A program made the translations under genes and the position numbers. From assembly GCA_016936735.1 (NCBI GenBank), contig JAFGXH010000116.1, forward strand, positions 1-62,447: 62,447 nt of DNA, read 5' to 3'. The notes beneath the pieces were generated by a model. It had not been told where the DNA came from. It ran no database searches and saw nothing but the letters and a program-made list of their open reading frames with translations. This stretch comes from a bacterium. Lineage in GTDB: Bacteria > UBP6 > JAFGXH01. Positions 1-38,590 of this stretch are shown here, piece after piece (the first letter of the stretch is position 1; each line of letters opens with the position of its first letter).

Positions 1-228
1 AATCCATGTTTAAATGGTGGAAGCTGTGTTGATGGTGTAAATAGTTATAGTTGTAACTGTCTAGCAGGATATGAGGGAACAAACTGTGAAACAAATATCA
101 ATGAGTGTGCAGTGAATCCATGTTTAAATGGTGGAAGCTGTGTTGATGGTGTAAATAGTTATAGTTGTAACTGTCCAGCAGGATATGAAGGAACAAACTG
201 TGAAACAGATATTAATGAGTGTACTCTT
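1..228 (+). repeat. Tandem coding repeat of about 114 bp, two copies at about 93% identity, encoding cbEGF modules. The array probably continues upstream of the window.
   Basis: nt 1-60 are identical to nt 115-174. nt 61-114 versus 175-228 differ at about 8 positions. Confidence 0.8.
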
Positions 229-1917
229 AATACAGATACTTGTACAACAACTCAATATTGTATAAATACAGTTGGTTCTTTTAATTGTGTTGCTTGTAAT
301 TGTGAAACACTATTTACAGTTGGAAGTTCAGATAGTTGCTCTGATGAGGTTGGACAATGTAATTGTGAAACTGGTTATGCTGGTTTAACTTGTGACTCTT
401 GTGCAACTGGATATCAAGATAATGATAATGATACAATTTGTGAGCCAACCTGTGCAACAAGTGGTTTAAATTGTGGAGCAAATGGTGTTTGTGATGACTC
501 CTTAGGTGAAGCAATTTGTGATTGTAACACTGGTTTTGCTGGTACAACTTGTGACTCTTGTGCAACTGGATATTGGGGAGCATCTTGTTCTGCTTGTCCA
601 ACAACATGTGATTCAGGTGATGGACATGGTATTTGTAATGAGGATATAACTGCAACATCAGCATGTTTATGTGATGATGGTTATATTGAGGAGAGTGAAG
701 TTTGTGTTCCAATAGTTCTTCCGCCTCAAATTGTTATTAATGAAGTTGATCCAAATGGTAATTGGGTAGAGCTTTATAATAAAGGAACTGAGACTGTTGA
801 TTTAACTGATTGGGTTATAGAATCTGATATTGGTGGTGCTTCAATTGATTTATCTGGAACAATACCTGCAAATGGGTATTTTATGATTAATCCAATCAAT
901 ATGGAAGCAACAATTGATGAAATTACACTTTACAATACTGATATTGAAGTAGTTGATTCTGTTACTTTTGAGAATGTTCCAGCTGGTAAATCCTATAGTC
1001 GTTTCTCAAATGGTTCAGATAATTGGATGCTTCTTGATGTAATGACTTATAATGCATCTAATGAAGTTGTTATTGGATGGTGTTCAACACAGTGGCCAAA
1101 TAGTACAACAACAGATGTAAATGTTGCAACAGAGACTATTTATGGTCAGATTTATACAAGTGGATTGACTGATACATATACAACATCAGTAAATATGTTA
1201 AGTGCTAAATTGTGTTATACATCTGATTTAGTAAATTTAACAAATCCAACTTGTGTTAATGCAAATTGGGGTTCAAAAGAGAGCAATAATCATCAATATA
1301 CAGCTACTTTAACACTTGCAGATGCTGGTGATTATAAATATTATTATCAATTCTCTGGTGATAATGGCTTAACTTGGAAAACTTGTAATTTAAATAGTCA
1401 AGGTGGTTCTGATACTCCTCTTGAAGCTGGAAAAGTTGGGAATTTAACTGTTAATGCAGGAGCTAACAACAATATTATTCAAAATGGAGGATTTGAAATT
1501 TGGACTAATGAAAGCTCAAATGCAGATAATTGGGGTGGTTCGAAAACAAGTTCATCTGTTTCAATAAAATATACAACATCAACAAATTCAGGAAGTAATG
1601 CAGCTCAATTAACAAACACCTCTGCAACTCATAAACGTTTTACAACTGTAGCACAAGATATAGATTCTGGTTCTTATAGTTGTACCTATTATGTTAGAGG
1701 TAAAGGACAAATTAGAAATGCTTATGGATGGGGAGCAAGCTCTTACTCTACATATTCTTCATACTCAGTAATTGATTCAGATACTTGGAGTCAAATTACA
1801 TATGATTTTACATTAGCATCAAATTTAACTGCTTTTGAGCTTATTTTCTCATTTCATTCAACAAGTATTGATAGAGATCATCTTCAAATTGATGATGTTG
1901 TTTGTATAAAACAGTAA
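1..1917 (+). CDS. Secreted calcium-binding-EGF-repeat protein with a lamin-tail domain (LTD) and a C-terminal beta-rich domain. It is 5'-truncated: the reading frame is open from nt 1.
   Basis: Frame 1 is open from nt 1 into ORF 112..1917. Repeated D-I-N-E-C...NPCLNGGSCVDGVNSYSC NC PAGYEGTNCE cbEGF modules are present. An LTD-like segment follows (PQIVINEVDPNGNWVELYNKGTETVDLTDWVIES). Terminator hairpin lies downstream. Confidence 0.6.
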   Translation, partial: NPCLNGGSCVDGVNSYSCNCLAGYEGTNCETNINECAVNPCLNGGSCVDGVNSYSCNCPAGYEGTNCETDINECTLNTDTCTTTQYCINTVGSFNCVACNCETLFTVGSSDSCSDEVGQCNCETGYAGLTCDSCATGYQDNDNDTICEPTCATSGLNCGANGVCDDSLGEAICDCNTGFAGTTCDSCATGYWGASCSACPTTCDSGDGHGICNEDITATSACLCDDGYIEESEVCVPIVLPPQIVINEVDPNGNWVELYNKGTETVDLTDWVIESDIGGASIDLSGTIPANGYFMINPINMEATIDEITLYNTDIEVVDSVTFENVPAGKSYSRFSNGSDNWMLLDVMTYNASNEVVIGWCSTQWPNSTTTDVNVATETIYGQIYTSGLTDTYTTSVNMLSAKLCYTSDLVNLTNPTCVNANWGSKESNNHQYTATLTLADAGDYKYYYQFSGDNGLTWKTCNLNSQGGSDTPLEAGKVGNLTVNAGANNNIIQNGGFEIWTNESSNADNWGGSKTSSSVSIKYTTSTNSGSNAAQLTNTSATHKRFTTVAQDIDSGSYSCTYYVRGKGQIRNAYGWGASSYSTYSSYSVIDSDTWSQITYDFTLASNLTAFELIFSFHSTSIDRDHLQIDDVVCIKQ

Positions 1918-5520: not shown

Positions 5521-8500
5521 TTATTCACGACAAGGACGTTCATCAACAAGACCATCACAATCATTATCTATTGAATCACCACATATCTCATCTTGAGGTT
5601 CTCCTGGAGTAGCATCACAAGTTTGATTACCAGATGAGTCACAGCTATAAACCCCTGTTTTTCTACAAGCTCCTAAACCAACAACACAGGATTGTCCAAT
5701 TTGAAATCCATCATCAACAATGCCATCACAATCATCATCAATACCATTACAGGTCTCTACCATTGGAAGTATATCATTTTCACAAGATGTCCATAGCTCA
5801 CCACCAATACAGCTTTGAGTTCCCTTTTTACATCTTGAGTTTTCTCCAAAAGAGTCTGCATAACCTCTGTAACACTCTTGGGTTTCACCTGAATTACAAC
5901 CACAGTTTTCATCTGTTTCACCATTACAGTTGTTATCAAGACCATCACCACAAACCTCTGTTTGAGGAGCTCCTGCAACAGCACCACAAACAAGTTCACC
6001 ACTTTCATTACATATATATGGTGCAAATCTCATACATTGTCCAACTCCTGTATTACAAAACATACCATAGGAGCCTTTAAATGATGTTTCCATAATATTA
6101 TCACTCTCATTACACTCTGAATATGCTCCAATTCCATTACCATAATCATCAGCTGAAGCAAATATATTATAGCGACGAATTTCGTCTGGATTTTCAGGAG
6201 TATAATCAAATTCAATAATCTCTCTTCTTCCAGGCCATAGATCTGTTTGAGTAACAGCAAATCCAATTAATTCTCTACTTCCCTGATCTGGAAGCCCTTT
6301 ATAAATTGCAATTGGAACTCCTGCTTTTACAGAGATAGTTCCAAGATTAGCAACTCTAACCTTTATTTTAAATGATAGTTGAGGACAATCCTCTCTTTCA
6401 ACTTGAACTCTTTCAACAATAAAGTTAGGGGCATTAAAAACTCCCTTGCCTTGAGAATTAAGACGATAGTTATTATAGTTTAACCAGTTTTTCTCCTCAA
6501 CTTGAGGTATTTTTCCTGTTTCAGAAACATTTGTAATATGATATGAGTGTTGATTCCAAATAGTTCTTGTTCTAACCCAGTTATTATTTGAGTCTTCAAA
6601 AACTCTTATTCCATAATTTCCATTTGATATATGGTCTTGTTCTGCACCATTTGGACCCCAAGGGCATTTGTTTGTTGAGTATGATGCATTTGCAACAACA
6701 ACAACTTCAGATTTTCCATCACCATTTATATCAACAACAAGAGGATATTCAAATATTGTTGCTGAACTATTTTTTATTTTAAAACGTTCACTTCCTCTTA
6801 ATCCATCATAAATTCTAAAATAACACTCATCTGCATATAAAACCTCTGCCTTTCCATCTCCTTCAAAATCAAATAGAGATGAGCCTGTTTGACGAGATGA
6901 GTAGTCTTTTGTTGCTTTTTCCCACAATACAGTAACAATTCCTGTTGAAAGATTTGGCTTTAAAACCCTATAATACTCTGTTCCTGCAACCGCAATCTCC
7001 AAATTTGAGATATCATCATCAAAATTTGCAACTGTTGGTGGTCCTCCTATTGGATAGCTTGTTCCAATAGCATTATCAATTGGAAATGGAGTTATTAAAT
7101 CTTCACCTTTAAAATCATAAATGTAAAGATAACCATTTGAAACAACAACTATCTCTGGATTACCATCCCAATTAAGATCAGCAATAGCTGTATAACCATC
7201 TTTTCTATCCTCTCTTGCCCAAATTCTTGAACAATCTCTACCAGAAATAATAAGATTTCCAGTTACAATATCCATTACACCATCATTATTAATATCCTCT
7301 ACAACAGTGATATATCTTTTGTGTGCATTAGTTGGATAGTCACTATTATTTCCATAAGAGCCAAGTATGTCAGTTGAATTACATTTTTTTGAGCCATTAT
7401 CTCCATTAAAAATGTAGTTTCCAACAATAATTTCTGGTTTTCCATCATGATCTAAGTCAGCAATTGCTGGTGCTCCAGGAGCTGTTCTTGGCATATCCTC
7501 TTGAGTTTCCCATTTAAGATTACCATTTCTATCAAATGCAACAACTCGTTTATTTCCAACTTTAATACCAACAATCTCATTAAAGCCATCATTATCAATA
7601 TCACCAAGAGCTAAACCACTACCTCCACTCATTTTTGGGGTTGTTATTGTAAAATGCTCTCTACCAGTATCTCCACTTAACACTCTTAACACTGAATCTG
7701 TATCCCATTTATCATCAGGATATGATGTAAATGCAATATCTGGAATATCTTTTAAATTAACAACACCATCATTATTGTCATCTGTTATATTTCCAACAAC
7801 AGGTGGCATTAAAACATGTTTGTGTGTTGATAATATATTAGTTTGAGAACCATTCCAACTCCAAGCAACAAGTGGTGTCATTTGTTGTTGAAATTCAGGA
7901 ATATATTGACAACTTCCATCAGTTGTTGATATCTCAAGACATAACCCCATTACACTATCACAGAACTGATTTGTATCACATTCAAAATCATTTTCACAAG
8001 ATCTTCCAGGCTGCATACATTGTGAACCATTAAAACATATTTGAGAACCACTACAACAATTTGTTCCACATGGAACACCATTTGCACAAAACTCTCTTGC
8101 ACAAGTTGTTCCATTATAATAGTAGCCATTATCACATTCACACCAGAAATCTCCTTCAATATCATCAATACAGATACCATGTTCTCCACAATCTGCTGTT
8201 GGAGAGTCACAACCTTGATTTATTTCACATTTTGTGCCATTTACAAGGTGATATCCTGAATCGCATTCACATTCCCCATTATCTTGATTGCAAATACCTC
8301 CATCACAAATAACATCTTTGCAAAGATCTGTCTCTTGACGACACTCAAGATTAATTGCATAATAGCCATCATTACAACTACATCTAGCAGTTGCACCATC
8401 TGCTATGCAAACACCATGTGGTTTACATCTTTCTCCCTCACAAGGGTTTATACATCCACTTCCTGAAACAAATGTGTATCCTGCATTACAATCACACATT

Positions 8501-8655
8501 GCATATCCCTCAGCCTCAACAACAATACAGGTTCCATTTGAACCACAATCCAAATCATCACAAAGATTTCCATCTGGATTCTTATTTGTTGTTTCATTAC
8601 ATCCTATAAAAAGCATGGAAAGCACAATTCCAACTATAAAAAGTGCTGTTTTCAT
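5521..8655 (-). CDS. Large secreted lipoprotein: N-terminal EGF-like Cys-rich modules, an integrin-alpha-like FG-GAP beta-propeller, and C-terminal CxxDxDNDCDGxxDE cysteine repeats.
   Basis: Lipobox LFIGC. FG-GAP-like repeats DIDNDGFNEIVG, DLDHDGKPEIIVG, DINNDGVMDIVTG, DLNWDGNPEIVVV, DFEGDGKAEVLYA, DINGDGKSEVVVV. C-terminal repeats CGDGLDNNCNGETDE, CNGIDDDCDGIVDD, CGDSIDNDCDGLVDE. Confidence 0.6.
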   Translation of the reverse strand: MKTALFIVGIVLSMLFIGCNETTNKNPDGNLCDDLDCGSNGTCIVVEAEGYAMCDCNAGYTFVSGSGCINPCEGERCKPHGVCIADGATARCSCNDGYYAINLECRQETDLCKDVICDGGICNQDNGECECDSGYHLVNGTKCEINQGCDSPTADCGEHGICIDDIEGDFWCECDNGYYYNGTTCAREFCANGVPCGTNCCSGSQICFNGSQCMQPGRSCENDFECDTNQFCDSVMGLCLEISTTDGSCQYIPEFQQQMTPLVAWSWNGSQTNILSTHKHVLMPPVVGNITDDNNDGVVNLKDIPDIAFTSYPDDKWDTDSVLRVLSGDTGREHFTITTPKMSGGSGLALGDIDNDGFNEIVGIKVGNKRVVAFDRNGNLKWETQEDMPRTAPGAPAIADLDHDGKPEIIVGNYIFNGDNGSKKCNSTDILGSYGNNSDYPTNAHKRYITVVEDINNDGVMDIVTGNLIISGRDCSRIWAREDRKDGYTAIADLNWDGNPEIVVVSNGYLYIYDFKGEDLITPFPIDNAIGTSYPIGGPPTVANFDDDISNLEIAVAGTEYYRVLKPNLSTGIVTVLWEKATKDYSSRQTGSSLFDFEGDGKAEVLYADECYFRIYDGLRGSERFKIKNSSATIFEYPLVVDINGDGKSEVVVVANASYSTNKCPWGPNGAEQDHISNGNYGIRVFEDSNNNWVRTRTIWNQHSYHITNVSETGKIPQVEEKNWLNYNNYRLNSQGKGVFNAPNFIVERVQVEREDCPQLSFKIKVRVANLGTISVKAGVPIAIYKGLPDQGSRELIGFAVTQTDLWPGRREIIEFDYTPENPDEIRRYNIFASADDYGNGIGAYSECNESDNIMETSFKGSYGMFCNTGVGQCMRFAPYICNESGELVCGAVAGAPQTEVCGDGLDNNCNGETDENCGCNSGETQECYRGYADSFGENSRCKKGTQSCIGGELWTSCENDILPMVETCNGIDDDCDGIVDDGFQIGQSCVVGLGACRKTGVYSCDSSGNQTCDATPGEPQDEICGDSIDNDCDGLVDERPCRE

Positions 8656-8825
8656 GATTAATCCTCCAATGATACCAAACTATTCTATATGATTTTATGA
8701 AAAAAATCAATAAAGCTCTTATACAATATATAAAATTGTTTAACAAGCTCTATTTTTCTAAAACTAATCCTGTAAAATTCAGAAAAATAGATAACATAAA
8801 ATTACTCCAAAAATTTTGAATTTTC

Positions 8826-19110: not shown

Positions 19111-21822
19111 ATGTGGATATTTGTATTTTTATCACTACCTTTTGAAACCCCATTTCTAGGGGAGTTTACAGAAACGACTACTTGTAATAATAAAAATTAT
19201 ATTGTCTATTTGAAAAGTGGTTATCCATATTTAAGAGATTTGACAGAAAATACAGAAAACCCTATTTCTGGCGTTTATGGTTTTCCTATGGGATTGTTTT
19301 GTGAAAATAGTAATCTTTATATTGTAACATTAGATTATGATATTGGTGAATTGGATAAATACTATTTTTATAAATATAGAGAAAATGAGCAGATGGTGGA
19401 GTTAATAACTTCATACAATGATAATATTATGGGTACAATAACTCCTCACTCTTTTAATAATACTTTAATACTAAAAAAAGGTTCAAGTATAAAAAAATAT
19501 ATATTTTCAAATGAAAATGTGACCTCCTCAACACTATTTTCAACAACATCATCTTTTGATAGATTTGCAACTACTCCTCCATATAATATTGCTGTTATAT
19601 CAAATTCACAAAATCTTATAATAAGAGATATAATTGGAGAACATGAATATTCTGTTTTAACTAATTCAAAAATATTAGATTTAATAAAAGATGATAATAA
19701 TGAATATTATATGTTAGTTTCAAATGGTTCAACCCTTTATATTTATAAAATCCATTCAGATTTTACAATAACACAAATTCACTCAAAAACTCATGATCAA
19801 ATAATTGAAAATGGGATATTTTATAAAGAGAATAGTAATTTTTATGGTTATCTTTCTGATTCAACTTATAAATTATATATTTTTGAGGGAAAAGAGAGTT
19901 TTTCTAATCTCTATTTTCACTATAATGATTCAGGTGTTACAAAAATTCAAAAATCAAATCTTTATCCAATATATTTAAAAACAGGTACTTTAGGAAGTGT
20001 TTATAAAGTTACTAATGATTTTTCTATTCTAAATAAACCAACAATTCTTTACCCTAATGGAGTAATTGATACATATATACATCCAGACATATATATTCAA
20101 TCTCCTAATAGATATGATTTATTCTCCTCTTATAGAATTGATATATCAAGAAGTTATGATTTTTTGCAGATTGATAAATCAATATCATCTGTAACACTCT
20201 CTGATGAGGAGTCTCAGAAAAATGTTGTTGATAGTTATAGTTTCTCTATTGCAACACCATACTATATAAGAGCCTATTATTATGATATATTCTCTAGAAA
20301 GAGTGAGTATAGTTATAGTAGTTTTATAAAAAATAGTGATTTAAATCTTTTGACATTATCTGTTTATGATAAAACAACAAACTCTGTTGAATATAGTGAT
20401 GAAAGAGATGTTGTTTTATATACACAAGGAGAATCAAATCTTGAAAACATTGAACTCTCATTTAACTCAGACTTTTCTAATTCACAAATATTATCTGTAG
20501 GTGGAGAGCAGACTATTGAACTTCCAAATGTTGAGGGAATTAATAATATTTTTGTAAGAGGTGTTGTATTAGATCAATCAAATATTATAGCCTCAACAAA
20601 TCAAAAAGAGAGTTCAATATTTCTTGATTTAACAAAACCAATATCACCAGTAATAACTTCAGGAGATAGTTTTGATAACAATATACAAATCACTTGGAAT
20701 CCATCAAGTGATAGTGGTTCAGGGTTATCAAAATATATTTTAAATATTAAAAAAGATGGTTTTAGTATATATCAAAAGGAGATTTCAAAAGATAATATAA
20801 CTCATTTAGTAGAGACTACTTTACAAAATGGTCTCTATAGTATTGAATTATATAGTGTAGATTTAGCTGGAAATATATCTATTCCATCTTTAAAAAATAT
20901 AACATTAGCAAAAAAACCATTAACTATAAGTGATTTGGATATTGAATTTAATTCACTTACTCCTAAATTAACTTTTGAGGATGATAATGATATTGTTAAC
21001 AAAAATTATAAAATTACTCTTTTTAAAGGAGATTTAAAACTAACAGAGTGGACTCTTTTTGATCAGAATCCAGATAGTAGTAGTAAAACTGTTATTTTAC
21101 CAAAATATTTTTACAAACATGGAGAGAAATATAGATTCTCAATAAATGTTGCTGATAATTTTGCTGAATCAGATAGCAAAGTGGTTGAAAAAGAGGCAGA
21201 TTTATCCACTTTAAAGCCAGCAATTCCTATAATAATATCTGAAACTGGAGAGATATCTTTAAACTCCTATAATCTGAAATTTAATTCAGTATTAGCTCCA
21301 TCTGAGGAGGTGATAAATTATAAAATATATAAAAATAGTGTTTTTTATAGTGAAATAGGAGTAACAGAAGCAAATTTAAATGATTTAGAGGAGAATAGTG
21401 GGTATGTTATTGAGGTAGAGGCTTGTGATAACTCAATTTCACTCTGTTCTGATAGAGATAGTGTAGATATTTTTGTTAACCAAATAGAGGAGTCCCCAAG
21501 TAAAGTTGATATTTTAGAACCACTAAATTTATCAATTATAAAAGAGTTTCCTTTTGATATTAGATGGAGTGAATCAATTGATCCAGAAGGAACTATTATA
21601 ACATATCATATTACTCTTTCTGATAAATCTGATTATTCAAAAGTTATATTAGAGTTTTTTGATGTACAAGATACAAAAAAAACAGTTAATTCATTAAAAG
21701 GTGGTAAATATTATTTAAAAATTATTGCTAAAGATTCAAAAAATAATCTCTCTGAAATATCAGAAATCTCTTTTGAAATTGAATCAAAATCTAATAACTC
21801 CTCTGGATGTAGTTTTTATTAA
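19111..21822 (+). CDS. Large secreted protein with repeated Ig/Fn3-like beta domains. It ends ...SSGCSFY.
   Basis: N-terminal hydrophobic signal. Ser/Asn/Tyr-rich beta-repeat composition. No catalytic motifs. Confidence 0.4.
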   Translation: MWIFVFLSLPFETPFLGEFTETTTCNNKNYIVYLKSGYPYLRDLTENTENPISGVYGFPMGLFCENSNLYIVTLDYDIGELDKYYFYKYRENEQMVELITSYNDNIMGTITPHSFNNTLILKKGSSIKKYIFSNENVTSSTLFSTTSSFDRFATTPPYNIAVISNSQNLIIRDIIGEHEYSVLTNSKILDLIKDDNNEYYMLVSNGSTLYIYKIHSDFTITQIHSKTHDQIIENGIFYKENSNFYGYLSDSTYKLYIFEGKESFSNLYFHYNDSGVTKIQKSNLYPIYLKTGTLGSVYKVTNDFSILNKPTILYPNGVIDTYIHPDIYIQSPNRYDLFSSYRIDISRSYDFLQIDKSISSVTLSDEESQKNVVDSYSFSIATPYYIRAYYYDIFSRKSEYSYSSFIKNSDLNLLTLSVYDKTTNSVEYSDERDVVLYTQGESNLENIELSFNSDFSNSQILSVGGEQTIELPNVEGINNIFVRGVVLDQSNIIASTNQKESSIFLDLTKPISPVITSGDSFDNNIQITWNPSSDSGSGLSKYILNIKKDGFSIYQKEISKDNITHLVETTLQNGLYSIELYSVDLAGNISIPSLKNITLAKKPLTISDLDIEFNSLTPKLTFEDDNDIVNKNYKITLFKGDLKLTEWTLFDQNPDSSSKTVILPKYFYKHGEKYRFSINVADNFAESDSKVVEKEADLSTLKPAIPIIISETGEISLNSYNLKFNSVLAPSEEVINYKIYKNSVFYSEIGVTEANLNDLEENSGYVIEVEACDNSISLCSDRDSVDIFVNQIEESPSKVDILEPLNLSIIKEFPFDIRWSESIDPEGTIITYHITLSDKSDYSKVILEFFDVQDTKKTVNSLKGGKYYLKIIAKDSKNNLSEISEISFEIESKSNNSSGCSFY

Positions 21823-23941: not shown

Positions 23942-24313
23942 ATGGCAACAATAAATCAGTTAATAAGAAAAGAGCGACAAGAAGTCGCTAAAAAGAACAA
24001 GGTTCCCGCTTTAAAAGGGTGCCCTCAAAAAAAAGGTGTTTGTAGAAGAGTTTATACTGCAACTCCAAAAAAACCAAACTCAGCTTTAAGAAAAGTTGCA
24101 AGGGTTCGTTTAACAAATGGTATTGAAGTTACTGCATATATTCCAGGAGAGGGTCACAATCTTCAGGAACATGCAACAGTACTTATCCGTGGTGGAAGGG
24201 TTAAAGACTTACCAGGGGTTCGTTATCACATTATTCGTGGTGTGTTTGATACACAAGGTGTTAAAAATCGTAAAAAAGGTCGCTCCAAATATGGTGCAAA
24301 AAAACCTAAATAA
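23942..24313 (+). CDS. rpsL: 30S ribosomal protein S12.
   Basis: [10 protein letters not shown]...[11 protein letters not shown]. Confidence 0.95.
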
Positions 24314-24331
24314 TCTTTAAGAGGGAAGAAA

Positions 24332-24802
24332 ATGCCAAGAAGAAGAGAAGTACCAAAAAGATTAGTTCTCCCAGAACCAAAATATAATGATGTTACTGCT
24401 GCAAAATTTATTAACATGCTTATGTTGGAAGGGAAAAAAAGTGTTGCTGAGAAGATTTTCTATGGCGCACTTGAAAGAGTTGAAGGAAAACTTAAAGAGA
24501 ATGGACTTGATATATTTAAAAAAGCTTTAAACAATATTCGTCCAGAACTTGAAGTTAAGTCAAGAAGAGTTGGTGGTGCAACATACCAAGTTCCAGTTGA
24601 AGTTAATAAAGAGCGTTCTATTGCTCTTGCAATGAGATGGTTAGTTACATACTCAAGAAAACGTGCTGGAAAAACAATGGTTGATAAATTGTCTGGTGAG
24701 TTAATGGATGCTATTTCTGGAAAAGGTGCATCTATTAAGAAAAAAGATGATACTCACAAAATGGCAGAAGCAAATAAAGCATTTGCACATTATCGCTGGT
24801 AA
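24332..24802 (+). CDS. rpsG: 30S ribosomal protein S7.
   Basis: MPRRREV...; conserved S7 layout. Confidence 0.95.
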
Positions 24803-24818
24803 TAATTAGGGAAAACAG

Positions 24819-26894
24819 GTGGAAAAAAGACTTAAATCAATAGATAAAGTTAGAAATATCGGTATGATGGCACACATTGATGCCGGTAAAACAACAGTAA
24901 CAGAGAGAGTTCTGTTTTATACTGGAAAATCATACAAAATAGGTGAAGTTCATGAAGGAACCGCAGAGATGGATTGGATGGTTCAAGAGCAGGAGAGAGG
25001 TATTACAATTACCTCTGCAGCAACAACCTGTTTCTGGAAAGATATTCAAATCAATATAATAGATACACCTGGACATGTTGATTTTACTGTAGAAGTAGAG
25101 CGTTCACTTCGTGTTTTAGATGGAGCTGTTGCTATTTTTTGCGGTGTTGCTGGTGTTCAACCACAATCCGAAACAGTTTGGAGACAAGCAAGTAAATATA
25201 AAGTGCCAAGAATTGCATTTGTTAACAAAATGGATAGAGTTGGTGCTGATTTTCAAAGAGTTTTATCAATGTTTCCAACACATCTTAATACAACACCTGT
25301 TGCACTTCAATTGCCTATTGGACAAGGGGAGAATTTTGAAGGAGTTGTTGATTTACTCACAAAAAAAGCATATAGTTTTGCTGGTATAGCACCTGACAAT
25401 ATGACAGAGATAGAGATTCCAGATAATATGGTTGATGAAGTTGAAATGTATCATGAACTTCTTGTAGAAAAGGCTGCAGAGCAATCTGAGGAGTTAATGG
25501 AGAAATATATTGAAACAGGCAATCTCTCTATTGAAGATGCAAAATTGGGTATAAAAATAGGGGTTTTGACACATTCAATTACTCCAGTTCTTTGTGGTAC
25601 CGCTTTTAAAAACAAAGGAGTGCAATTACTTCTTGATGCAATTGTTGAGTATCTTCCATCTCCATCAGAGGTTGGAACAAAAGAGGCAATTTCTCTTGAT
25701 AATGGCGAAAAAATAGAGGTTTCACCTCTTGATGATGAGCCGTTTTCAGCTCTTGCATTTAAAATTATGACAGACCCATATGTTGGTCAGTTAACATTTT
25801 TTAGAGTTTATTCTGGAAAATTAGAATCTGGTTCTGTTGTTATCAATAGTGCAAAAGGTAAAAAAGAGAGAATTGGTCGTATTCTTAGAATGCATGCAAA
25901 TAAAAGAGAAGAGATTGATGGTATTTATTGTGGTGACATTGCCGCTGCAGTTGGTTTAAAGCTAACTACAACAGGTGATACTTTATGTGACTTAAATCAT
26001 CCAATTCAACTTGAATCAATCGATTTTCCAACACCAGTCATCTCAATTGCAATTGAACCTAAGACGAAAATGGATGTAGATCGTATGGTTTCTGCATTAG
26101 AGAAATTGATGAAAGAGGATCCATCTTTTTCTGTTAAAGTAGACCCTGAAACAGCTCAAACAATTATATCAGGAATGGGAGAGCTTCATTTGGAGATTAT
26201 TGTAGATCGCTTATTAAGAGAATTTGGTGTTGATGCTAATGTTGGAGCTCCACAAGTTGCTTATAGAGAGACTATTAGAGGAACTGTTACACAAGAGGGT
26301 AAATATGTTCGTCAAAGTGGTGGTCGTGGTCAATATGGTCATGTAGTCATAGAAATCTCTCCATTAGAAGCAGGCAAAGGCTTTAAATTTGAAAATGCAA
26401 TTGTTGGAGGTGTTATTCCCAAAGAGTATATTCCTGCAGTTGAGAAAGGTATTATCGAAGCAATGGATAATGGTGTTTACGCTGGATACCCAATGGTTGA
26501 TATAAAAGTTAGACTTATAGATGGTTCTTATCATGAAGTTGACTCAAGCGAAATGGCATTTAAAGTTGCTGGTTCAATAGGATTCAAAGAGGCTGTTATG
26601 AAAGCAAATCCAGCACTTCTTGAACCTATTTTTTCTGTTGAAATAACAACTCCAGATGAATTTATGGGTGATGTTATTGGGGATATTAATTCCCGTAGAG
26701 GGAAAATAACTGGTATGGAGCAAAATATTAATCTTCAAGTTGTTAAGGCTGAAATTCCATTATCAATGATGTTTGGCTATGCAACAGATTTACGCTCTAA
26801 AACACAGGGAAGAGCAACATACTCTTATCAGTTTTCCCATTATAGTGAGGTTCCTGCAAGTATTGCAGAGAAGATATTAAAAAACCGTTTTTAG
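24819..26894 (+). CDS. fusA: Elongation factor G (GTG start).
   Basis: [22 protein letters not shown], full 691-aa EF-G. Confidence 0.93.
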
Positions 26895-26973
26895 CTTAAG
26901 AGTAAAATTTAACTTGATTTTATTCTTTAAATATTCTAAAATAAAAAGCTTTTTTATTTCTTACGGAGCGGTA

Positions 26974-27276
26974 ATGAAAAAAATCAGAATTAAACTGAAA
27001 GCCTATGACAACAAATTACTCGATTCAACTGTTGCTGATATTGTAAATGTAGCAAAAGAAAAAGGGGCTGAAGTTATAGGTCCGATTCCACTACCAACCA
27101 AAATAAACAAATATACAATTTTGCGTTCGGTTTTTGTGAATATTAAATCAAGAGAGCAATTTGAAATCCGTACACACAAACGGTTAATTGACATTGTAAT
27201 TACCTCTCAAACTGCTGACATTTTTGAAAACATTGATATTTCCGCAGGGGTTGAAATAGAGGTTAAATCCTTATAA
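26974..27276 (+). CDS. rpsJ: 30S ribosomal protein S10.
   Basis: [12 protein letters not shown]... after a GGAG SD. The upstream in-frame extension of the ORF track is rejected. Confidence 0.9.
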
Positions 27277-27288
27277 TTTAAAGAGGCT

Positions 27289-27981
27289 ATGATGTTGAAA
27301 AAGATATTTGGAAAAAAAATTGGGATGACACAGATTTTTACTGAGAATGGTGTTAGAATTCCTGTTACAGTATTAGAAGTGGCACCTCTGCATGTTTTGA
27401 GAGTGTTAAAAGAGACAAAAGGAAAAGGACATGCAGTTAATGCAATTGAAGTTGGATACGATGTAGTTCGTGAAGTTAAAGCAGAATTACAAGAGATGTT
27501 TAAAGAGGAATTTGCTCTTCACAAAGCACTTAGAGTTAAAAAACCTATTCTTGGTGTTATTAAAAAAGCTGGTTTTGAGAAAAAATTTGCTTTAATTCGT
27601 CAAATTAAAGTTGAAAAACCAGAAGAGTTTAATGCAGGTGATGTTTTAACATTAGAGCAGTTTCAATTAGTTAAAAAAGTTGATGTGCAAGGTACAACAA
27701 AAGGTCGTGGATTTACAGGTCCAATAAAAAGACATAATTTACATACAGGTCCAAATACACATGGTTCTCGTTATCATAGAGGACAAGGATCTTTAGGACC
27801 ATCAGCAGATCCAAGCCGTGTTTATCCTGGTAAAAAATTAGCAGGACATTATGGTAATGAGATAGCTACAGTACGTAATCTTGATGTTGTTAAAGTTGAC
27901 CTTGAGAATAACCTACTTGTTGTGAAAGGTGCAGTTCCTGGAGCAAATGGTGGTTATGTTGTTATCAAAACATCCTTATAA
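27289..27981 (+). CDS. rplC: 50S ribosomal protein L3.
   Basis: GKKIGMTQIF... L3 N-terminus. Confidence 0.9.
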   Translation: MMLKKIFGKKIGMTQIFTENGVRIPVTVLEVAPLHVLRVLKETKGKGHAVNAIEVGYDVVREVKAELQEMFKEEFALHKALRVKKPILGVIKKAGFEKKFALIRQIKVEKPEEFNAGDVLTLEQFQLVKKVDVQGTTKGRGFTGPIKRHNLHTGPNTHGSRYHRGQGSLGPSADPSRVYPGKKLAGHYGNEIATVRNLDVVKVDLENNLLVVKGAVPGANGGYVVIKTSL

Positions 27982-27992
27982 TTCAGGAGAAG

Positions 27993-28619
27993 ATGATGAA
28001 AATCGATGTATACGATTTGAATTTTAATAAGGTTAGAGAGATTGAAGTGAGTGATAATATTTTTGCAGCAGAAGTGAAAGAACATATTCTTCATGATGTT
28101 GTAAAAGCTCAACTTCGTCTTCGCAGAAGTGGAACTGCAAAAACAAGAAACAGATCAGAGGTTTCTGCAAGCAGTAGAAAAATTTATAAACAAAAAGGGA
28201 CAGGAAATGCTCGTCATGGTGCAAAAGACTCTCCACTCTTTCCAAAAGGTGGTGTTGTTTGGGGTCCACGTGGTGTTATAAGTGCATACAAAGTTAACAA
28301 AAAAGTTATGAGAGGTGGTTTAATATCTGCTCTATCTTTAAAAGTTAAAGAACAACGTTTTTTTGTTGTTGATTCTTGGTCTCTTAAATCATTTAAAACA
28401 AAAGAGTTTAAATCTGTTTTAACTCGTTTTCAAATTGAGAAAGGTTTAATTGTGGATGATTGTGAAACCACAGAAAACCTTTATCTAGCCTCCAGAAATT
28501 TAAAAGACATGAAACTGATTAAAACAGGTGGTGTGAATGTTTTTGATATTTTAAAATACAAAACACTACTTCTCAGTGAAGAGTCCGTAAGAAAAATTGA
28601 GCAAAGATTAAGCAAATAG
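27993..28619 (+). CDS. rplD: 50S ribosomal protein L4.
   Basis: Position and length in the S10 cluster. Basic protein. Confidence 0.88.
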   Translation: MMKIDVYDLNFNKVREIEVSDNIFAAEVKEHILHDVVKAQLRLRRSGTAKTRNRSEVSASSRKIYKQKGTGNARHGAKDSPLFPKGGVVWGPRGVISAYKVNKKVMRGGLISALSLKVKEQRFFVVDSWSLKSFKTKEFKSVLTRFQIEKGLIVDDCETTENLYLASRNLKDMKLIKTGGVNVFDILKYKTLLLSEESVRKIEQRLSK

Positions 28620-28634
28620 GAAGAGGTTAGTATA

Positions 28635-28940
28635 ATGTTAAGTGTTTATAGTGTTATTAAGAAGCCTTTGATTACAGAAAAATCAAGTGCTGAAAGTGAA
28701 AATCTTTCAAAATACCACTTTATTGTAGATCGTACAGCTACAAAAGAGGATATCAGAGCAGCTGTTGAAGAGCTTTTTAAAGTTTCTGTTGATAGTGTTA
28801 ACACAATGTTGTATCATGGAAAGCCAAAAAGAGTGCGTGCTCATTTTACAAAAAGACAAAGCTTTAAAAAAGCAATTGTAACTCTTAAAGAGGGTTCAAA
28901 AATTGATTTTTTTGAAGAGATGGCAACTGAAGAGAATTAA
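28635..28940 (+). CDS. rplW: 50S ribosomal protein L23.
   Basis: [11 protein letters not shown]... Confidence 0.9.
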
Positions 28941-28951
28941 GGAGTAATAAA

Positions 28952-29809
28952 ATGGCATTGAAAAAATACAAACCTACTTCAGCTGGAAGAAGAGGAATGA
29001 GCTCCATCAGTTTCCGTAATCAGTTTTTAAATCAGGATGGAACTGTTACTCTTACAACTGAAAACCGTCCAGAAAAAACACTCTTGATTACAAAAAAATC
29101 AAAAGCTGGTCGTAATGCTCAAGGTAGAGTAACAACTCGTCATCAAGGTGGTGGACACAAACAGCAATATCGTGTTATTGATTTTAAAAGAAATAAATTT
29201 GATGTAGAGGGTAAAGTCTCCTCTATAGAATATGATCCAAATCGTTCTGCATTTATTGCACTTGTTGTTTACAAAGATGGAGAAAAACGTTATATTATTG
29301 CTCCAGAGGGATTAGTTGTTGGTCAAAAAGTAATCTCTTCAAATAGTGCAGATATAACAGTTGGAAATACTCTTCCTCTCCAAAGTATTCCTGTTGGTAC
29401 AGTAATTCATAATATTGAGCTTCAACCAGGAAGAGGAGCCCAGATGGTTCGTAGTGCTGGAAACTCAGCTCAGTTGCTTGGTAAAGAGGGAAAATATGCA
29501 ATTATTAAACTTCCTTCAAATGAAACAAGAAAAGTGTTATTGACTTGCAGAGCTACAATTGGAGCTGTTTCTAATTCAGACCACAATCTTGTACGTTTAG
29601 GAAAAGCAGGTAGAAATCGTTGGAAAGGTGTTCGTCCAAGTGTTCGTGGTGTTGTAATGAACCCTGTAGACCATCCTCATGGTGGTGGTGAAGGACGTAC
29701 TTCTGGTGGTCGTCATCCTGTTTCCCCTTGGGGTAAACCTACAAAAGGTCACCGTACAAGAAAAAATAAACGTACGGATAAATTTATCGTAAGTCGTAGA
29801 AAGAAATAA
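28952..29809 (+). CDS. rplB: 50S ribosomal protein L2.
   Basis: [14 protein letters not shown]... and [12 protein letters not shown]. Confidence 0.95.
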
Positions 29810-29819
29810 GGAGTGAGAG

Positions 29820-30098
29820 GTGACAAGATCTATTAAAAAGGGTCCTTTTATTGATGAGCATCTACTAAAAAAAGTAGAAAAAGCTCAAAGAGGAGAGTCT
29901 AAAAAATTGATTAAAACTTGGTCCCGCCGTTCAACTATCGTTCCTGAATTTATTGGGGTTACGATTGCTGTTCATAATGGGAAAAAATTTTTACCTGTGT
30001 TAATCACAGAAAACATGATCGGCCACAAATTGGGTGAATTTGCTCCAACACGTACTTATTATGGTTTTGGTGCTGATAAGAAGAAGAAGAAAAAGTAA
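29820..30098 (+). CDS. rpsS: 30S ribosomal protein S19 (GTG start).
   Basis: [11 protein letters not shown]... Confidence 0.92.
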
Positions 30099-30112
30099 TT
30101 AGGAGTTAAGTG

Positions 30113-30445
30113 ATGGAAGCTAAGGCAGTATTGAGGTTTTTAAGAATTTCCCCAACTAAAACCCGTATGGTTACGAACATGATTAAAGGTAAATATGTGA
30201 GTGAAGCACTTGCTCTTTTGAAGTTTACTGAAAAAGGTGCTGGAACTCCTATTTATAAACTTTTAAATTCTGCTATTACAAATGCAGAGAACAATTTTAA
30301 TGCAGATATTGATGATCTTCGTATCAAAAATATATTTGTTGACGAGGGCCCAATGTTGAAAAGATATCGTCCTGCAGCAATGGGAAGAGCAACTCGCATA
30401 AGAAAAAGAACAAGTCATGTAACTATTATTGTATCTAACGAATAG
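30113..30445 (+). CDS. rplV: 50S ribosomal protein L22.
   Basis: MEAKAVLRFLRISPTKTRMV. AGGAG sits 7 nt upstream of the ATG at 30113. Confidence 0.9.
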   Translation: MEAKAVLRFLRISPTKTRMVTNMIKGKYVSEALALLKFTEKGAGTPIYKLLNSAITNAENNFNADIDDLRIKNIFVDEGPMLKRYRPAAMGRATRIRKRTSHVTIIVSNE

Positions 30446-30454
30446 GGGGAAAGT

Positions 30455-31081
30455 TTGGGTCAAAAAGTTAATCCAATCAGTTTTCGTCTGGTTGTAAACA
30501 AAGATTGGCGTTCCAAATGGTTTAAAGACAGCAAATCCTATGCAAAATTATTACGCCAAGATATTGAATTGCGTAAATATATTCTTGAAAACCGCAAAAA
30601 TACCGGTATTGCTAGAATTGATGTGGAACGTATTGGTGATAAAAAGGTGAATATTATTGTTTATACAGCAAAAATGGGTCTTTTTATTGGTGCTAAAGGT
30701 GAAAATAAAGATAAACTCGTTGAAAGCATAAAAAAAGATCTTAAAGAGACAGTAAATATTCGTCCAATTGAGGTTAAGAAACCACAAATTAATGCACAAT
30801 TAATCTCTGAAAATGTTGCAATGCAACTTAAAAAGAGGGTTTCATTTAGAAAAGCAATGAAAAAAGCTATTCAAGAAGCAATGAAAAGTGGTGCAAAAGG
30901 GGTTAAAATTTTCTGTTCAGGCCGTTTAGGTGGAGCAGAGATGGCTCGTACAGAGTGGTATCGTGAAGGAAGAGTTCCTCTTCAAACTCTTCGTGCAAAA
31001 ATTGAGTATGGTTTTTCCGAGGCATTGACCACATACGGATTAATCGGGGTTAAAACATTGGTTTATTTAGGTGATGAATAA
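30455..31081 (+). CDS. rpsC: 30S ribosomal protein S3 (TTG start).
   Basis: [11 protein letters not shown]... KH domain. AGGGGGA SD. Confidence 0.92.
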
Positions 31082-31092
31082 GGAGTCTCAAA

Positions 31093-31500
31093 ATGTTGAG
31101 TCCGAAAAGAGTAAAACACAGAAAAACTTTTAAAGGCAGAACTAGAGGTTTTGCATATACAGGAAATGAGGTGAGTTTCGGAGATTTCGGTTTAAAATCA
31201 GTTGAACCAGGCTGGTTAAGCTCAAAACAGATTGAAGCAGGTCGTATCGCTTTAAACCGTTATATTAAAAGGGGTGGAAAAATTTGGATTCGTATTTTTC
31301 CAGATAAACCTTTAACAAAAAAACCAGCTGAAACTCGTCAAGGAAAAGGTAAAGGTTCTCCTGATTCTTGGGTTGCAGTTATTAGACCAGGAATGGTTCT
31401 TTATGAAGTGGAGGGAGTTACTGAAGAGCAAGCAAAAGAGGCTTTTCGTCTTGCAGCTCACAAGTTACCAATTAAAACAAAATTTGTTGTTAAGGATTGA
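31093..31500 (+). CDS. rplP: 50S ribosomal protein L16.
   Basis: [11 protein letters not shown]... Confidence 0.93.
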
Positions 31501-31508
31501 GGTTTTTG

Positions 31509-31730
31509 ATGAAAACAACACAACAAAAATTAAGTCAAAAGTTGTTAAAAGAGCTTAAAGAACTCGAAAAAGAGAAACGTATGGAGCTTTTTACAGCGAG
31601 AATGAAACATTATTCAGGCCAATTGATGGATGTTTCACAGTTGAAAAAATTAAAGAAAGAGGTTGCGGCTATTTTAACTGTTATCCATCAAAAAGAGAAT
31701 GAAGAACAAAGCAGTGCTCATAACTCTTAA
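31509..31730 (+). CDS. rpmC: 50S ribosomal protein L29.
   Basis: ATG at 31509 after the L16 stop. LKELKELEKEKRMELFTARMK. Confidence 0.85.
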   Translation: MKTTQQKLSQKLLKELKELEKEKRMELFTARMKHYSGQLMDVSQLKKLKKEVAAILTVIHQKENEEQSSAHNS

Positions 31731-31749
31731 CTAGCTAAGGGGATTAAAG

Positions 31750-31998
31750 ATGCAAGGAAGAAGAAAAGTGCTTCAGGGAGTAGTTATCAGTGATAAAATG
31801 GATAAAACTGTAACAGTTGAAATTAATACCCTGATTTTGCATAAAAAATATAAAAAATATGTAAAAAGAAGAGTTCGTTATAAAGCTCATGATGAACAAA
31901 ATGATTGCAAAGTAGGCTATAAAGTGATGATTGAAGAGACAAGACCACTCAGCAAAACAAAAAGATGGAGAGTGGTTAAAATTGTAAATACTATTTAG
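31750..31998 (+). CDS. rpsQ: 30S ribosomal protein S17.
   Basis: [20 protein letters not shown]... Confidence 0.92.
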
Positions 31999-32011
31999 TG
32001 AGGAGTACCCT

Positions 32012-32380
32012 ATGATTCAAATGTCAACAAACTTAACTGTAGCAGACAATTCGGGAGCTAAAAGAGTTCAGTGCATTAAGGTTTTGGGTGGCTCTAAAAA
32101 AAGATTTGCGCATCTTGGAGATATTATTGTTGTTAGTGTGAAAGAGGCAATTCCTAATTCCAAAATACAAAAAGGAAAAGTGTATCGTGCAGTTATTGTT
32201 CGTACAGTTAAAGAGGTTGCTCGTAAAGATGGATCACTAATAAGATTTGATGATAATTCTGTCGTTTTACTCAATGCAAGTCATGAACCTATCGGAACTC
32301 GTATTTTTGGACCAGTTGCAAGAGAGTTAAGAACTAAACAATTTATGAAAATTATTTCTATGGCACCAGAAGTATTATAA
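32012..32380 (+). CDS. rplN: 50S ribosomal protein L14.
   Basis: [27 protein letters not shown]. Confidence 0.95.
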
Positions 32381-32395
32381 TTGGGAGAAGGTATC

Positions 32396-32815
32396 ATGAA
32401 AGTAAAAACTTTGAACAAAGATAGAAAACCAAAAATCTTGAACAAAGACAGAACTAGAAAAAATCTTCGCAATAAGATGAAGCTCAAAAAAGGCGATAAA
32501 GTTATAGTTATCACTGGAAAACGTGAAGATAAAGGCAAAGTTGGTGAAATTTTAAGAGTTTTTCCAAAAACAGGAAAAGTTTTAATTCAAGGTATTAACC
32601 TTAGAACAAAACATAAAAAAGTTGACCCAAATACAAAAGAGGGTGGAATTGTAAAAATTGAAACTCCCCTTGATGCTTCAAATGTAATGTATTATTGTGA
32701 GTCTGCTCAAAAACCAACAAGAATTGGGTATCGTCTTAATGCAAATGGAACTAAAGTTCGTTTTTGCAAATTGACTGGTGAAGAGATTGTTGAGAAAAAA
32801 GTTATTAAAAAGTAG
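32396..32815 (+). CDS. rplX: 50S ribosomal protein L24 with a Lys-rich N-terminal extension of about 27 aa.
   Basis: GGGAGAAGG SD 5 nt before the ATG at 32396. Canonical L24 begins at MKLKKGDKVIVITGK (32477). The extension contains the tandem repeat LNKDRKPKI / LNKDRTRKN. Confidence 0.8.
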   Translation: MKVKTLNKDRKPKILNKDRTRKNLRNKMKLKKGDKVIVITGKREDKGKVGEILRVFPKTGKVLIQGINLRTKHKKVDPNTKEGGIVKIETPLDASNVMYYCESAQKPTRIGYRLNANGTKVRFCKLTGEEIVEKKVIKK

Positions 32816-32846
32816 TTGTTAAATTTTTGTAGACGGAGATAAGAGA

Positions 32847-33410
32847 ATGCATCAAACATTGCGTTTATATAAGGAAGTTGCTGTCCCAGAGATGATTTCA
32901 ACATTCCAATACAAAAACCCAATGGAGATTCCAAGAATTCAAAAAATCAGTTTGAATATGGGAATTGGGGAAGCAATACAAAACGGGAAATTATTAGAAA
33001 ATGCTGTTGTTCAGTTAACAAACATTGCTGGCCAAAAAGCAGTAATTACTCGTGCAAAAAAATCTATTAACCAATTTAAACTTCGTCAAGGTATGGCTAT
33101 CGGTTGCCGCGTTACCTTACGCCGTGATCGTATGTGGAATTTTTTAGATAAACTCTTCTATGTTGCATTGCCACGTGTACGTGACTTTAAAGGAATCTCT
33201 TTTAAAGGTTTTGATGGTCGTGGTAATTTTACATTTGGAATTAAAGAGCATATCATTTTCCCTGAGATTGATTATGATAAAGTTGATAAAATTCTTGGAA
33301 TGAATATCACTATCGTAACTTCAGCAAGAACGGATGAAGAAGCAAGAGCACTATTGAAATATATTGGTGCTCCATTTAAAGGTAATGAGACTGGAGGACA
33401 AGTTGGCTAA
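32847..33410 (+). CDS. rplE: 50S ribosomal protein L5.
   Basis: Conserved L5 N-terminus and length. Confidence 0.92.
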
Positions 33411-33588
33411 AAAAGCATTGATGTATAAAGCAACACTGGAACCTAAATTCCAGGTAAGAGGATATAATAGATGTCCTTTATGCGGACGTAGTCGCGGTTT
33501 TATGAGAAAATTTGGAATGTGCCGTATCTGTTTTCGTAATTTGGCATCTAAAGGTGAAATTCCTGGTGTTACGAAATCTAGTTGGTAA
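33403..33588 (+). CDS. rpsN: 30S ribosomal protein S14, zinc-binding type Z (61 aa), TTG start overlapping the rplE stop.
   Basis: [10 protein letters not shown]...[31 protein letters not shown] sits 5 nt upstream of the TTG. Confidence 0.85.
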
Positions 33589-33603
33589 TACAATTTTTAA
33601 TTG

Positions 33604-33632
33604 TTGACAAATTGTAAAAAATGATATATGAT
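33604..33632 (+). promoter_or_regulatory. Internal sigma70-type promoter between rpsN and rpsH.
   Basis: Perfect TTGACA, 17-nt spacer, TATGAT. Located in the 71-nt gap. Confidence 0.4.
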
Positions 33633-33659
33633 ACTAGGCCTTAGTATGTAGGAGTGGAC

Positions 33660-34070
33660 ATGTATGTAAATGATCCTATTGGTGATTTTCTAACAAGAAT
33701 TCGTAACGCTCAAATGGCGAAACATAGTTATTTAAGAGTTCCGACATCAAAAATCAAACAGGAACTGGCAAACATTTTATTAGAAGAGGGATTCATTAGC
33801 TCTGTTGAAGAACTTGAAAAAGAGGAAAGAAACCCTGTAGCAATGTTAGAAGTTGGTTTAAAATATAACCCAAAAACAAATGAGCCTATTATTAGTGAGA
33901 TTAAAAGAATCTCCAAACCAGGCCGTAAAGTTTATATAAAATCAAAAGACCTTCATCCATATAAAAATGGTTTTGGTTCATTTATATTAACAACATCTCA
34001 AGGGGTAATGACCGACCGCAAAGCAAGAACATTAAATGTGGGTGGTGAATTAATCTGTTCTATTTGGTAA
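33660..34070 (+). CDS. rpsH: 30S ribosomal protein S8.
   Basis: ATG at 33660 after AGGAG. MYVNDPIGDFLTRIRNA. Confidence 0.9.
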   Translation: MYVNDPIGDFLTRIRNAQMAKHSYLRVPTSKIKQELANILLEEGFISSVEELEKEERNPVAMLEVGLKYNPKTNEPIISEIKRISKPGRKVYIKSKDLHPYKNGFGSFILTTSQGVMTDRKARTLNVGGELICSIW

Positions 34071-34083
34071 TAAGGAGTAGACG

Positions 34084-34623: not shown

Positions 34624-34631
34624 GATAAGAG

Positions 34632-34994: not shown

Positions 34995-35003
34995 GAGATA
35001 AAA

Positions 35004-35516: not shown

Positions 35517-35527
35517 TGAGGAAACTG

Positions 35528-35713: not shown

Positions 35714-35722
35714 AGGTTAGTA

Positions 35723-36322: not shown

Positions 36323-36336
36323 GCTGAGGTAAAAGG

Positions 36337-37698: not shown

Positions 37699-37700
37699 TA

Positions 37701-38575: not shown

Positions 38576-38590
38576 TATTAAGGATGAGAT

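Follow-up and report, generated by a model that had tools for sequence, protein, structure and literature searches.

A predicted lipoprotein of an uncultured bacterium with a Bap1/RbmC-type propeller between EGF-like and cysteine-rich modules

The gene and its product

The DNA analysed here, referred to below as the window, is a stretch of 62,447 nucleotides (contig JAFGXH010000116.1 of assembly GCA_016936735.1, GTDB lineage Bacteria; UBP6; JAFGXH01), and its subject is a minus-strand gene at positions 5521 to 8655. A preliminary description, made from the letters of the sequence, had read the product as an integrin-alpha-like FG-GAP propeller lipoprotein flanked by EGF-like modules and metal-binding cysteine repeats. 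The region so described is exactly one open reading frame (ORF), 5521..8655 (-), and the NCBI entry identical to its product is named 'VCBS repeat-containing protein [bacterium]'. The product is a compact protein in which a lipobox, four EGF-like modules, a propeller, a CARDB-like domain and three Cys-rich modules follow one another, built around an eight-bladed propeller of the type found in Bap1 and RbmC. The features, with the evidence on which each is based, are as follows.

8663..8667, minus strand: Shine-Dalgarno sequence GGAGG, placed 7 nt upstream of the start codon (direct sequence reading)
5521..8655, minus strand: whole ORF, 1044 residues plus stop codon, ATG start (ORF list)
8599..8655, minus strand: signal peptide, residues 1-19, lipobox L-F-I-G-C, with Cys19 the predicted lipidation site (sequence pattern)
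8098..8568, minus strand: four six-Cys, EGF-like modules, non-calcium-binding in type, residues 30-186 (EGF_2 signature, Pfam, phmmer)
7906..8094, minus strand: Cys-rich cap with 11 Cys ahead of the propeller, residues 188-250 (modelled at a pLDDT of 82-96)
6451..7884, minus strand: eight-bladed Bap1/RbmC-type beta-propeller, residues 258-735 (profile, model, Foldseek)
6076..6429, minus strand: CARDB-like Ig-type beta-sandwich, residues 743-860 (weak Pfam match, PDB profile match, relatives)
5524..6063, minus strand: a unit made up of a 4-Cys three-stranded mini-sheet and then an acidic Cys loop, repeated in tandem three times, residues 865-1044 (alignment and dedicated AlphaFold2 model)
5908..5952, minus strand: PF11617 motif 1, CGDGLDNNCNGETDE, residues 902-916 (Pfam, motif scan, orthologue alignment)
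5710..5751, minus strand: PF11617 motif 2, CNGIDDDCDGIVDD, residues 969-982 (the same evidence)
5539..5583, minus strand: PF11617 motif 3, CGDSIDNDCDGLVDE, residues 1025-1039 (the same evidence)
8882..11350, plus strand: major vault protein (MVP) homologue, 822 residues (MVP_shoulder 6e-30, Vault_3 6e-8)

The protein has 63 Cys residues, clustered towards either end: residues 19-249 contain 36 of them and residues 848-1042 another 22. The AlphaFold model of the full-length protein has a mean predicted local distance difference test score (pLDDT) of 83.5 and a predicted template modelling score (pTM) of 0.71; the pLDDT exceeds 90 over the propeller and is low only at residues 864-964. No curated NCBIfam family covers the protein, the search returning only partial matches to T9SSA_dep_M6i (51 bits, cutoff 600) and acid_disulf_rpt (23 bits, cutoff 41). 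The GC content of the gene, 0.31-0.33, is in line with that of the surrounding low-GC chromosome. Rfam and tRNA scans of the window found nothing, and promoter-like sites in it occur at the level expected by chance in AT-rich DNA (33 against 26 +/- 5.7), so that we make no operon claim. On the opposite strand or in other frames, ORFs of 83-148 residues overlap the gene at 5634..6080 (+), 5757..6026 (-), 7950..8210 (-), 8061..8312 (+) and 8405..8692 (+), one of them His-rich; they were rejected as genes, the simplest view being that they are frame artefacts of a long ORF rich in Asp, Asn, Gly and Cys.

An eight-bladed propeller of the Bap1/RbmC type

Within the propeller, the five loops at residues 352, 400, 454, 493 and 642 fit the pattern D-x-[DN]-x-[DN]-G-x-x-[DE] in its strict form, compared with a mean of 0.014 matches in shuffles of the same region, and relaxed forms at 292 (DDNNDG), 546 (DDDISN, degenerate) and 596 (DFEGDG) bring the total to eight. 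A loop of the D-x-D-x-D-G type is present in seven blades and degenerate in blade 6, and the loops lie 39-60 residues apart, i.e. at blade spacing. FG-GAP_3 (PF13517; 5.9e-22, 78.5 bits against a gathering score of 26.9) and FG-GAP (PF01839; 3.1e-16, 59.3 against 22.1) are both matched above the Pfam gathering scores, and according to DSSP the AlphaFold model has eight blades of four strands, with strand 262-267, at the N-terminal end, completing blade 8 as a Velcro closure. The preliminary description had counted at least six calcium-type loops at propeller-like spacing, which the eight found here bear out, and a propeller is indeed predicted, at the high confidence already mentioned. It had also allowed that the motifs could be generic low-complexity Asp-rich repeats, which they are not, being positionally conserved structural loops.

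Among solved structures, the nearest relative of this propeller is Bap1, the biofilm adhesin of Vibrio cholerae. In a phmmer search of PDB sequences, the apo Bap1 structure 6MLT was matched at 2.3e-33, and the next best match, to Notch EGF at 4e-4, fell in the N-terminal EGF region. A profile built from 77 family sequences matched the same chain at 1.1e-100, covering its residues 9-279 and 444-606, followed by YesW and YesX of polysaccharide lyase family 11 (PL11) at 6e-15 to 1e-13, the range for PL11 reaching 1e-12 with another lyase of that family, CRTAC1 at 2e-12 and integrin alphaV at about 5e-5. Foldseek likewise placed Bap1 first (9.7e-26), the next best match being at about 1e-11 and the others weaker, with YesX at 4.5e-9 and integrin alpha chains at 1e-7 to 1e-10. 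The homology extends through the full length of the propeller of Bap1 and takes in its C-terminal R-I-W-N-Q...N-x-F-R segment, and the C-terminal segment W-x-R-T-R-x-I-W-N-Q-H of the propeller is conserved. We therefore assign the propeller firmly to the eight-bladed Bap1/RbmC type. The label 'integrin-alpha-like' is true at the level of the FG-GAP superfamily only; it fails on the eight blades and on the far stronger match to Bap1.

The Bap1 propeller binds an exopolysaccharide, Vibrio polysaccharide (VPS), directly (PMC10102183). According to a 2026 preprint, a VPS tetrasaccharide sits at the eight-fold axis of Bap1, cradled by W164, W202, W243 and W599; N550, S551, G596 and T597 hold a ligand-induced ion, and M53, Y88 and L598 make up an acetyl pocket. 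When these residues were mapped through HMMER alignments (phmmer and the 77-sequence profile), the ion site was found to have its counterpart in S586, S587, A632 and T633, and the acetyl pocket in L282, W317 and I634. Among the 77 family members, S586 is retained in 66, S587 in 71, T633 in 75, E636 in 74 and Y637 in 57, and the cradle positions are variable. As judged from these alignments, surface conservation in the family peaks in the core of the pocket and does not extend to the specificity shell, a pattern that is consistent with a shared binding mode and differing ligands.

Terminal modules and readings of function

At the N-terminus, the signal peptide ends in a sequence that fits the lipobox pattern [LVIF]-x-[GAS]-C (MKTALFIVGIVLSMLFIG-C19). 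The lipobox Cys and a Gly, Ser or Ala at position -1 are kept in 11 of 12 orthologues, the remaining one being N-terminally truncated, so the earlier label of lipoprotein agrees with what is found, lipidation itself being predicted. All four of the modules that follow match the EGF_2 signature, which we take to be C-x-C-x2-[GP]-[FYW]-x4-8-C, where 0.03 matches are expected by chance. The Pfam matches of EGF type were under threshold when the full-length protein was scanned and above it when the N-terminal region was scanned alone (EGF, PF00008, 24.8 against 21.5 bits; Pvs28-EGF, PF06247, 38.3 against 26), in keeping with the EGF-like, Cys-rich N-terminus noted earlier. The modules are modelled at a pLDDT of about 74-89. 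A search of them for the PROSITE signature of calcium-binding EGF modules (cbEGF), presumably [DEQN]-x-[DEQN]2-C...C-x-[DN]-x4-[FY]-x-C, gave no match. The cap between these modules and the propeller has a weak match to Dickkopf_N (0.005), and its Cys249 is retained by no fewer than 90% of the members of the wider family.

Directly after the propeller, residues 743-860 are predicted to form beta strands (pLDDT 74-96). The match to CARDB (PF07705) is weak here (0.062, 14 bits against a cutoff of 22.7) and covers positions 2-98 of the 101 in the profile; the family profile matched the solved chains 2l0d (1.6e-4) and 2kut (1.3e-3) over this region, and the relatives P0358 and P0375 have strong CARDB matches, above threshold, at the same place.

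The C-terminal region contains three stretches matching PF11617, 'Cu-binding_MopE' (3.1e-13, 50.2 bits against a cutoff of 27), which, like the FG-GAP families, thus stands above its gathering score. In each of the 12 orthologues the motif P-x-x-E-[IV]-C-x-[DN]-x-[ILF]-D-[DN]-[DN]-C-[DN]-G-x-x-D-E occurs three times exactly, with its positions kept and each copy after a 4-Cys segment, so that the triple repeat resembling a metal-binding Cys motif in the preliminary description holds up well. In a dedicated AlphaFold2 model built with 46 module homologues (pLDDT 91.2), every small beta-sheet, of three strands in units 1 and 3, leads into an acidic loop. In sequence and in fold alike, these modules matched no solved structure significantly: against the PDB, a profile of the C-terminal region gave no match (E 0.97) and a profile of the motif gave only a subtilase loop (E 0.069), neither of them retrieving MopE. 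That sole marginal match is a Ca-loop-like segment of the unrelated subtilase 3VV3.

The consensus of these motifs, C-x-D-G-x-D-N-D-C-D-G-x-x-D-E, agrees with the Pfam PF11617 consensus 'C.DGVDNNCDGQVD', which was aligned by Tucker et al. to the C-rich motif of teneurins (PMC3278476), and it also fits the D-x-D-x-D-G regular expression used for the propeller loops. In teneurins, the C-rich domain coordinates three Ca2+ in a manner like that of thrombospondin type-3 (T3) and LDLa loops (PMC9058538). By analogy, the C-terminal modules most likely bind Ca2+ through acidic, disulfide-braced loops like those of teneurin C-rich domains.

On balance, and largely by analogy with Bap1, we consider it moderately probable that the protein is a lipid-anchored, disulfide-rich, Ca2+-stabilised modular adhesin or lectin that binds glycan, and as such a common sort of protein for a bacterial surface. 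It is predicted to be exported and lipid-anchored at its N-terminus, where the stalk of four EGF-like modules and the Cys-rich cap would keep the propeller off the membrane. The propeller may bind a polysaccharide other than VPS in its central-axis pocket, possibly through a ligand-induced metal site as in Bap1, candidate ligands being exopolysaccharide made by the cell itself or a glycan carried by a particle, prey or host. The CARDB-like domain and the three acidic Cys modules, most likely Ca2+-binding, would make up the distal end, and the terminal modules could give rigidity, a second binding surface or both, following a 'double-sided tape' logic.

Several points weigh against this adhesin or lectin. 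The Trp cradle of Bap1 is not conserved (W164 corresponds to R390, W202 to about K446, W243 to G487 and W599 to F635), and the positions of Bap1 R118 and Y119 lie in a deletion. Going by the alignments, the loss of the cradle means that the ligand is certainly not VPS, and the step to another glycan would be an extrapolation from Bap1. The conservation of the pocket residues could be structural. Surface placement is predicted, with periplasmic retention as the alternative, and the gene neighbourhoods, described below, are not conserved and therefore give no functional hint.

The loss of the cradle would also fit a protein-binding receptor or matrix organiser, with a protein of the cell's own S-layer or matrix, or of a prey or host, as its partner. 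Such a role is unlikely, though it is the most serious competitor. EGF-like and Ca-binding Cys-rich modules, e.g. teneurin C-rich, make protein-protein contacts in eukaryotic matrix proteins, and Lamin-tail/Big_2 proteins are encoded directly downstream of two orthologues. However, that downstream lamin-tail gene is not kept across the orthologues, the most conserved surface residues of the propeller are those of the sugar and ion site of Bap1, and the nearest characterised relatives are all carbohydrate binders. Genes with EGF or lamin-tail domains lie near the orthologues L001 (13335-15110), L007 (3765-5609 and 9602-11098) and L002 (10672-13758).

The protein could also be a polysaccharide-degrading lyase like those of PL11, acting on its eight-bladed propeller, rather than a non-catalytic binder, a reading we hold to be improbable. 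YesW and YesX also have eight-bladed, Ca-containing, carbohydrate-binding propellers, they stand next after Bap1 with the family profile, YesX was found by Foldseek as well, and weak Pfam matches to RGL11_C occur in relatives of our protein. The PL11 similarity is nevertheless partial, with about 120-130 residues in the best stretch and two stretches in all, and lies some 85 orders of magnitude below that of Bap1, which is itself non-catalytic; the accompanying EGF, CARDB and Cys-rich modules, moreover, are adhesin-like.

A broader proposal is that the EGF array, acidic C-rich modules of Ca type and propeller, found in a deep-branching bacterium of low GC content and encoded in the same window as MVP, EGF/lamin-tail and ankyrin genes, mark a lineage whose extracellular-matrix toolkit is unusually close to that of metazoans, which we regard as quite improbable. 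If it were true, the lineage would be a prokaryotic reservoir of the teneurin-type pair of EGF and C-rich modules, or would hold genes that came from eukaryotic hosts or are directed at them. A prokaryotic contribution to teneurins has been proposed. Against this, bacteria commonly have each of these modules singly, and the genes of the window are not syntenically linked.

The preliminary description had gone on to join the protein with MVP in one unusual, eukaryote-like or Myxococcota-like surface apparatus. It was right that MVP lies on the divergent strand, where the gene listed above, 226 bp upstream on the opposite strand, matches MVP_shoulder and Vault_3. Bacterial homologues of MVP have already been described in Myxococcales, Cytophagales and Oscillatoriales (10.1101/872010). 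The one in the window starts MVDERRRERD..., has no signal peptide and stands next to a protein predicted to be exported; to our knowledge, MVP is cytoplasmic in all known cases. On its 3' side, 11461..14648 (+) contains two ORFs without a Pfam match (261 and 135 residues), a MoxR-type AAA_3 ATPase (1e-61) and a PKD-domain protein.

Conserved synteny of the propeller gene with MVP, DnaJ or the M50 peptidase was considered and is ruled out by three observations. First, tblastn searches with the MVP, DnaJ and M50 proteins of the window gave no match at any of 88 loci with homologues of the propeller protein. Second, neither MVP nor DnaJ occurs in the five orthologue neighbourhoods retrieved; with the locus of an 87%-identical orthologue added to these five, the neighbours differ at every locus. 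Third, in the sister genome GCA_020718465.1 that closest orthologue (L009) is on contig DYRY01000034.1 and MVP (L089, more than 90% identical) is on DYRY01000013.1, with unrelated neighbours, MVP being flanked there by an AAA_16/TPR gene upstream and a Toluene_X gene directly downstream. Copies of MVP at least 90% identical, in the same 90% cluster, occur on two other contigs. The propeller gene is thus independent of MVP: there is no evidence for a joint apparatus and the adjacency is not conserved. With the link removed, the vault-protein gene is to be judged separately.

An integrin-alpha-like receptor forming a single eukaryote-like surface apparatus with MVP is therefore very improbable, and its MVP part is largely refuted by synteny. 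Integrin alpha chains do share FG-GAP repeats with Ca-binding hairpin loops and an extracellular adhesion role, marginal integrin matches were obtained, MVP is close by, and other eukaryote-like domains (EGF with lamin tail, ankyrin) are encoded in the window. Integrins, however, have seven blades, not eight, the Bap1 match exceeds theirs by dozens of orders of magnitude, and a CARDB-like domain and Cys-rich domains stand downstream of the propeller instead of the thigh and calf domains, which are absent, as is the transmembrane helix; a search for a C-terminal hydrophobic segment found none. No integrin beta-subunit partner was identified, no search aimed at a beta-subunit gene having been made.

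Copper binding or copper acquisition through the MopE-type motifs, for which the PF11617 score speaks, is likewise very improbable: the copper site of MopE consists of two histidines and a Trp-derived kynurenine (PMC3423442), and the 185 residues from 860 to 1044 contain no His (nor does this region in 8 of the 12 orthologues) and one Trp. The MopE copper site is impossible without histidine, the profiles do not retrieve MopE, PF11617 spans a small part of MopE only and is without specificity (PMC6189053), and the motif fits the calcium-loop pattern; copper is, on the sequence, unlikely.

Lineage, distribution and comparison with known systems

The window includes a ribosomal str/S10/spc/alpha and EF-G block at 23942..40990 (+), with a GC content of 0.33-0.36 against 0.26-0.30 in the flanks. 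The 90% clusters of S12, S7, L2, RpoA and S11 hold this lineage only; EF-G has a sister sequence of 91% identity and is then at most 76% identical to metagenome proteins, its best named matches being Bacillota at about 66%. The sister, a metagenome-assembled genome (MAG; contigs DYRY01000034.1 and DYRY01000018.1), is labelled 'Anaeromyxobacter dehalogenans' in GenBank, has about 30% GC and an EF-G without Myxococcota affinity; given the GC content, the label is implausible and seems to be wrong. The FadL-type (Toluene_X) gene of the sister genome suggests a diderm envelope.

Elsewhere in the window, a second EGF-rich secreted protein is encoded at 112..1917 (+), with EGF, EGF_laminin, hEGF and EGF_CA above the Pfam thresholds and a lamin tail domain (4e-12); its ORF probably runs off the 5' end. 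An ankyrin-repeat protein of 420 residues (43186..44448 (-), Ank_2 2.4e-53) represents a domain type more typical of eukaryotes, and probable secreted proteins include an S8 subtilase of 653 residues (57456..59417 (-)) and an fn3-containing protein of 903 residues (19111..21822 (+)).

Besides the orthologue of the sister genome, eleven other cluster representatives have 48-56% identity to the protein, ten with the full architecture and one, P0012, truncated at its N-terminus. The compact architecture was seen only in MAGs without classification. Some genomes hold two or three full-length paralogues at 46-56% identity (L010, L011 and L012 in MAG JAMOQH01; L002 and L009 in MAG DYRY01), which points to a small lineage-specific expansion.

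The propeller itself is far more widespread, with 11,635 cluster representatives at an E-value of 1e-3, 5,053 at 1e-10 and 1,908 at 1e-30. The named members are mostly Myxococcota, the others including Bacteroidota (Saprospiraceae), Oligoflexia, Gammaproteobacteria and Goldiibacteriota, and many of the proteins are 2,000-5,000 residues long, some of them matched in several stretches. At least 105 small 'MopE-related' proteins contain the C-terminal module; many of these are from Myxococcota, where the preliminary description had rightly called the motif common, and others from Goldiibacteriota, Patescibacteria and one Woesearchaeota archaeon. Some propeller homologues have thrombospondin type-3 repeats (PF02412) in place of the PF11617 modules.

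Two over-readings of this protein, 'integrin-like' and 'copper-binding MopE', are hereby corrected, and a generic 'VCBS repeat-containing protein' of an uncultured lineage is tied to Bap1, the sole experimentally understood member of the propeller family and a binder of exopolysaccharide. That the Bap1 ion site is conserved better than any other part of this family, whose members number in the thousands, and that the sugar-specific tryptophans of Bap1 vary, gives a testable rule for predicting glycan pockets in many giant bacterial surface proteins.

Every module of the protein is already known, and the pairing of propeller and CARDB recurs in the relatives checked, so that the compact architecture is lineage-restricted and not conceptually new. 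In Myxococcota, Bacteroidota and other phyla, giant surface proteins of the VCBS/FG-GAP-CARDB kind have the same propeller at 35-47% identity, and those checked (P0358 and P0375) carry PKD, CarboxypepD_reg, SpaA/SdrD_B or disintegrin modules; P0017 and L081, of Myxococcota or 'Deltaproteobacteria', also end in PF11617 modules. Compared with the teneurin C-rich, T3 and LDLa loops, the loop here comes together with a 4-Cys mini-sheet, in a unit that is present three times, and compared with the copper proteins MopE and CorA, the Cu ligands are absent. In Bap1 and RbmC, a beta-prism lectin domain is inserted in blade 6, accompanied by a 57-residue loop in Bap1 or by mucin-binding domains in RbmC (PMC8295476). 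The alignment with 6MLT omits chain residues 280-443, i.e. the beta-prism insertion, and nothing is inserted between blades 5 and 6 here, which implies that the protein is without that domain. The 57-residue adhesive loop is absent as well. What the protein shares with Bap1 is thus the homologous propeller at its core, to which a predicted lipid anchor, an EGF stalk, a CARDB-like domain and Cys-rich modules of Ca type have been added, in an unrelated, uncultured lineage of low GC content.

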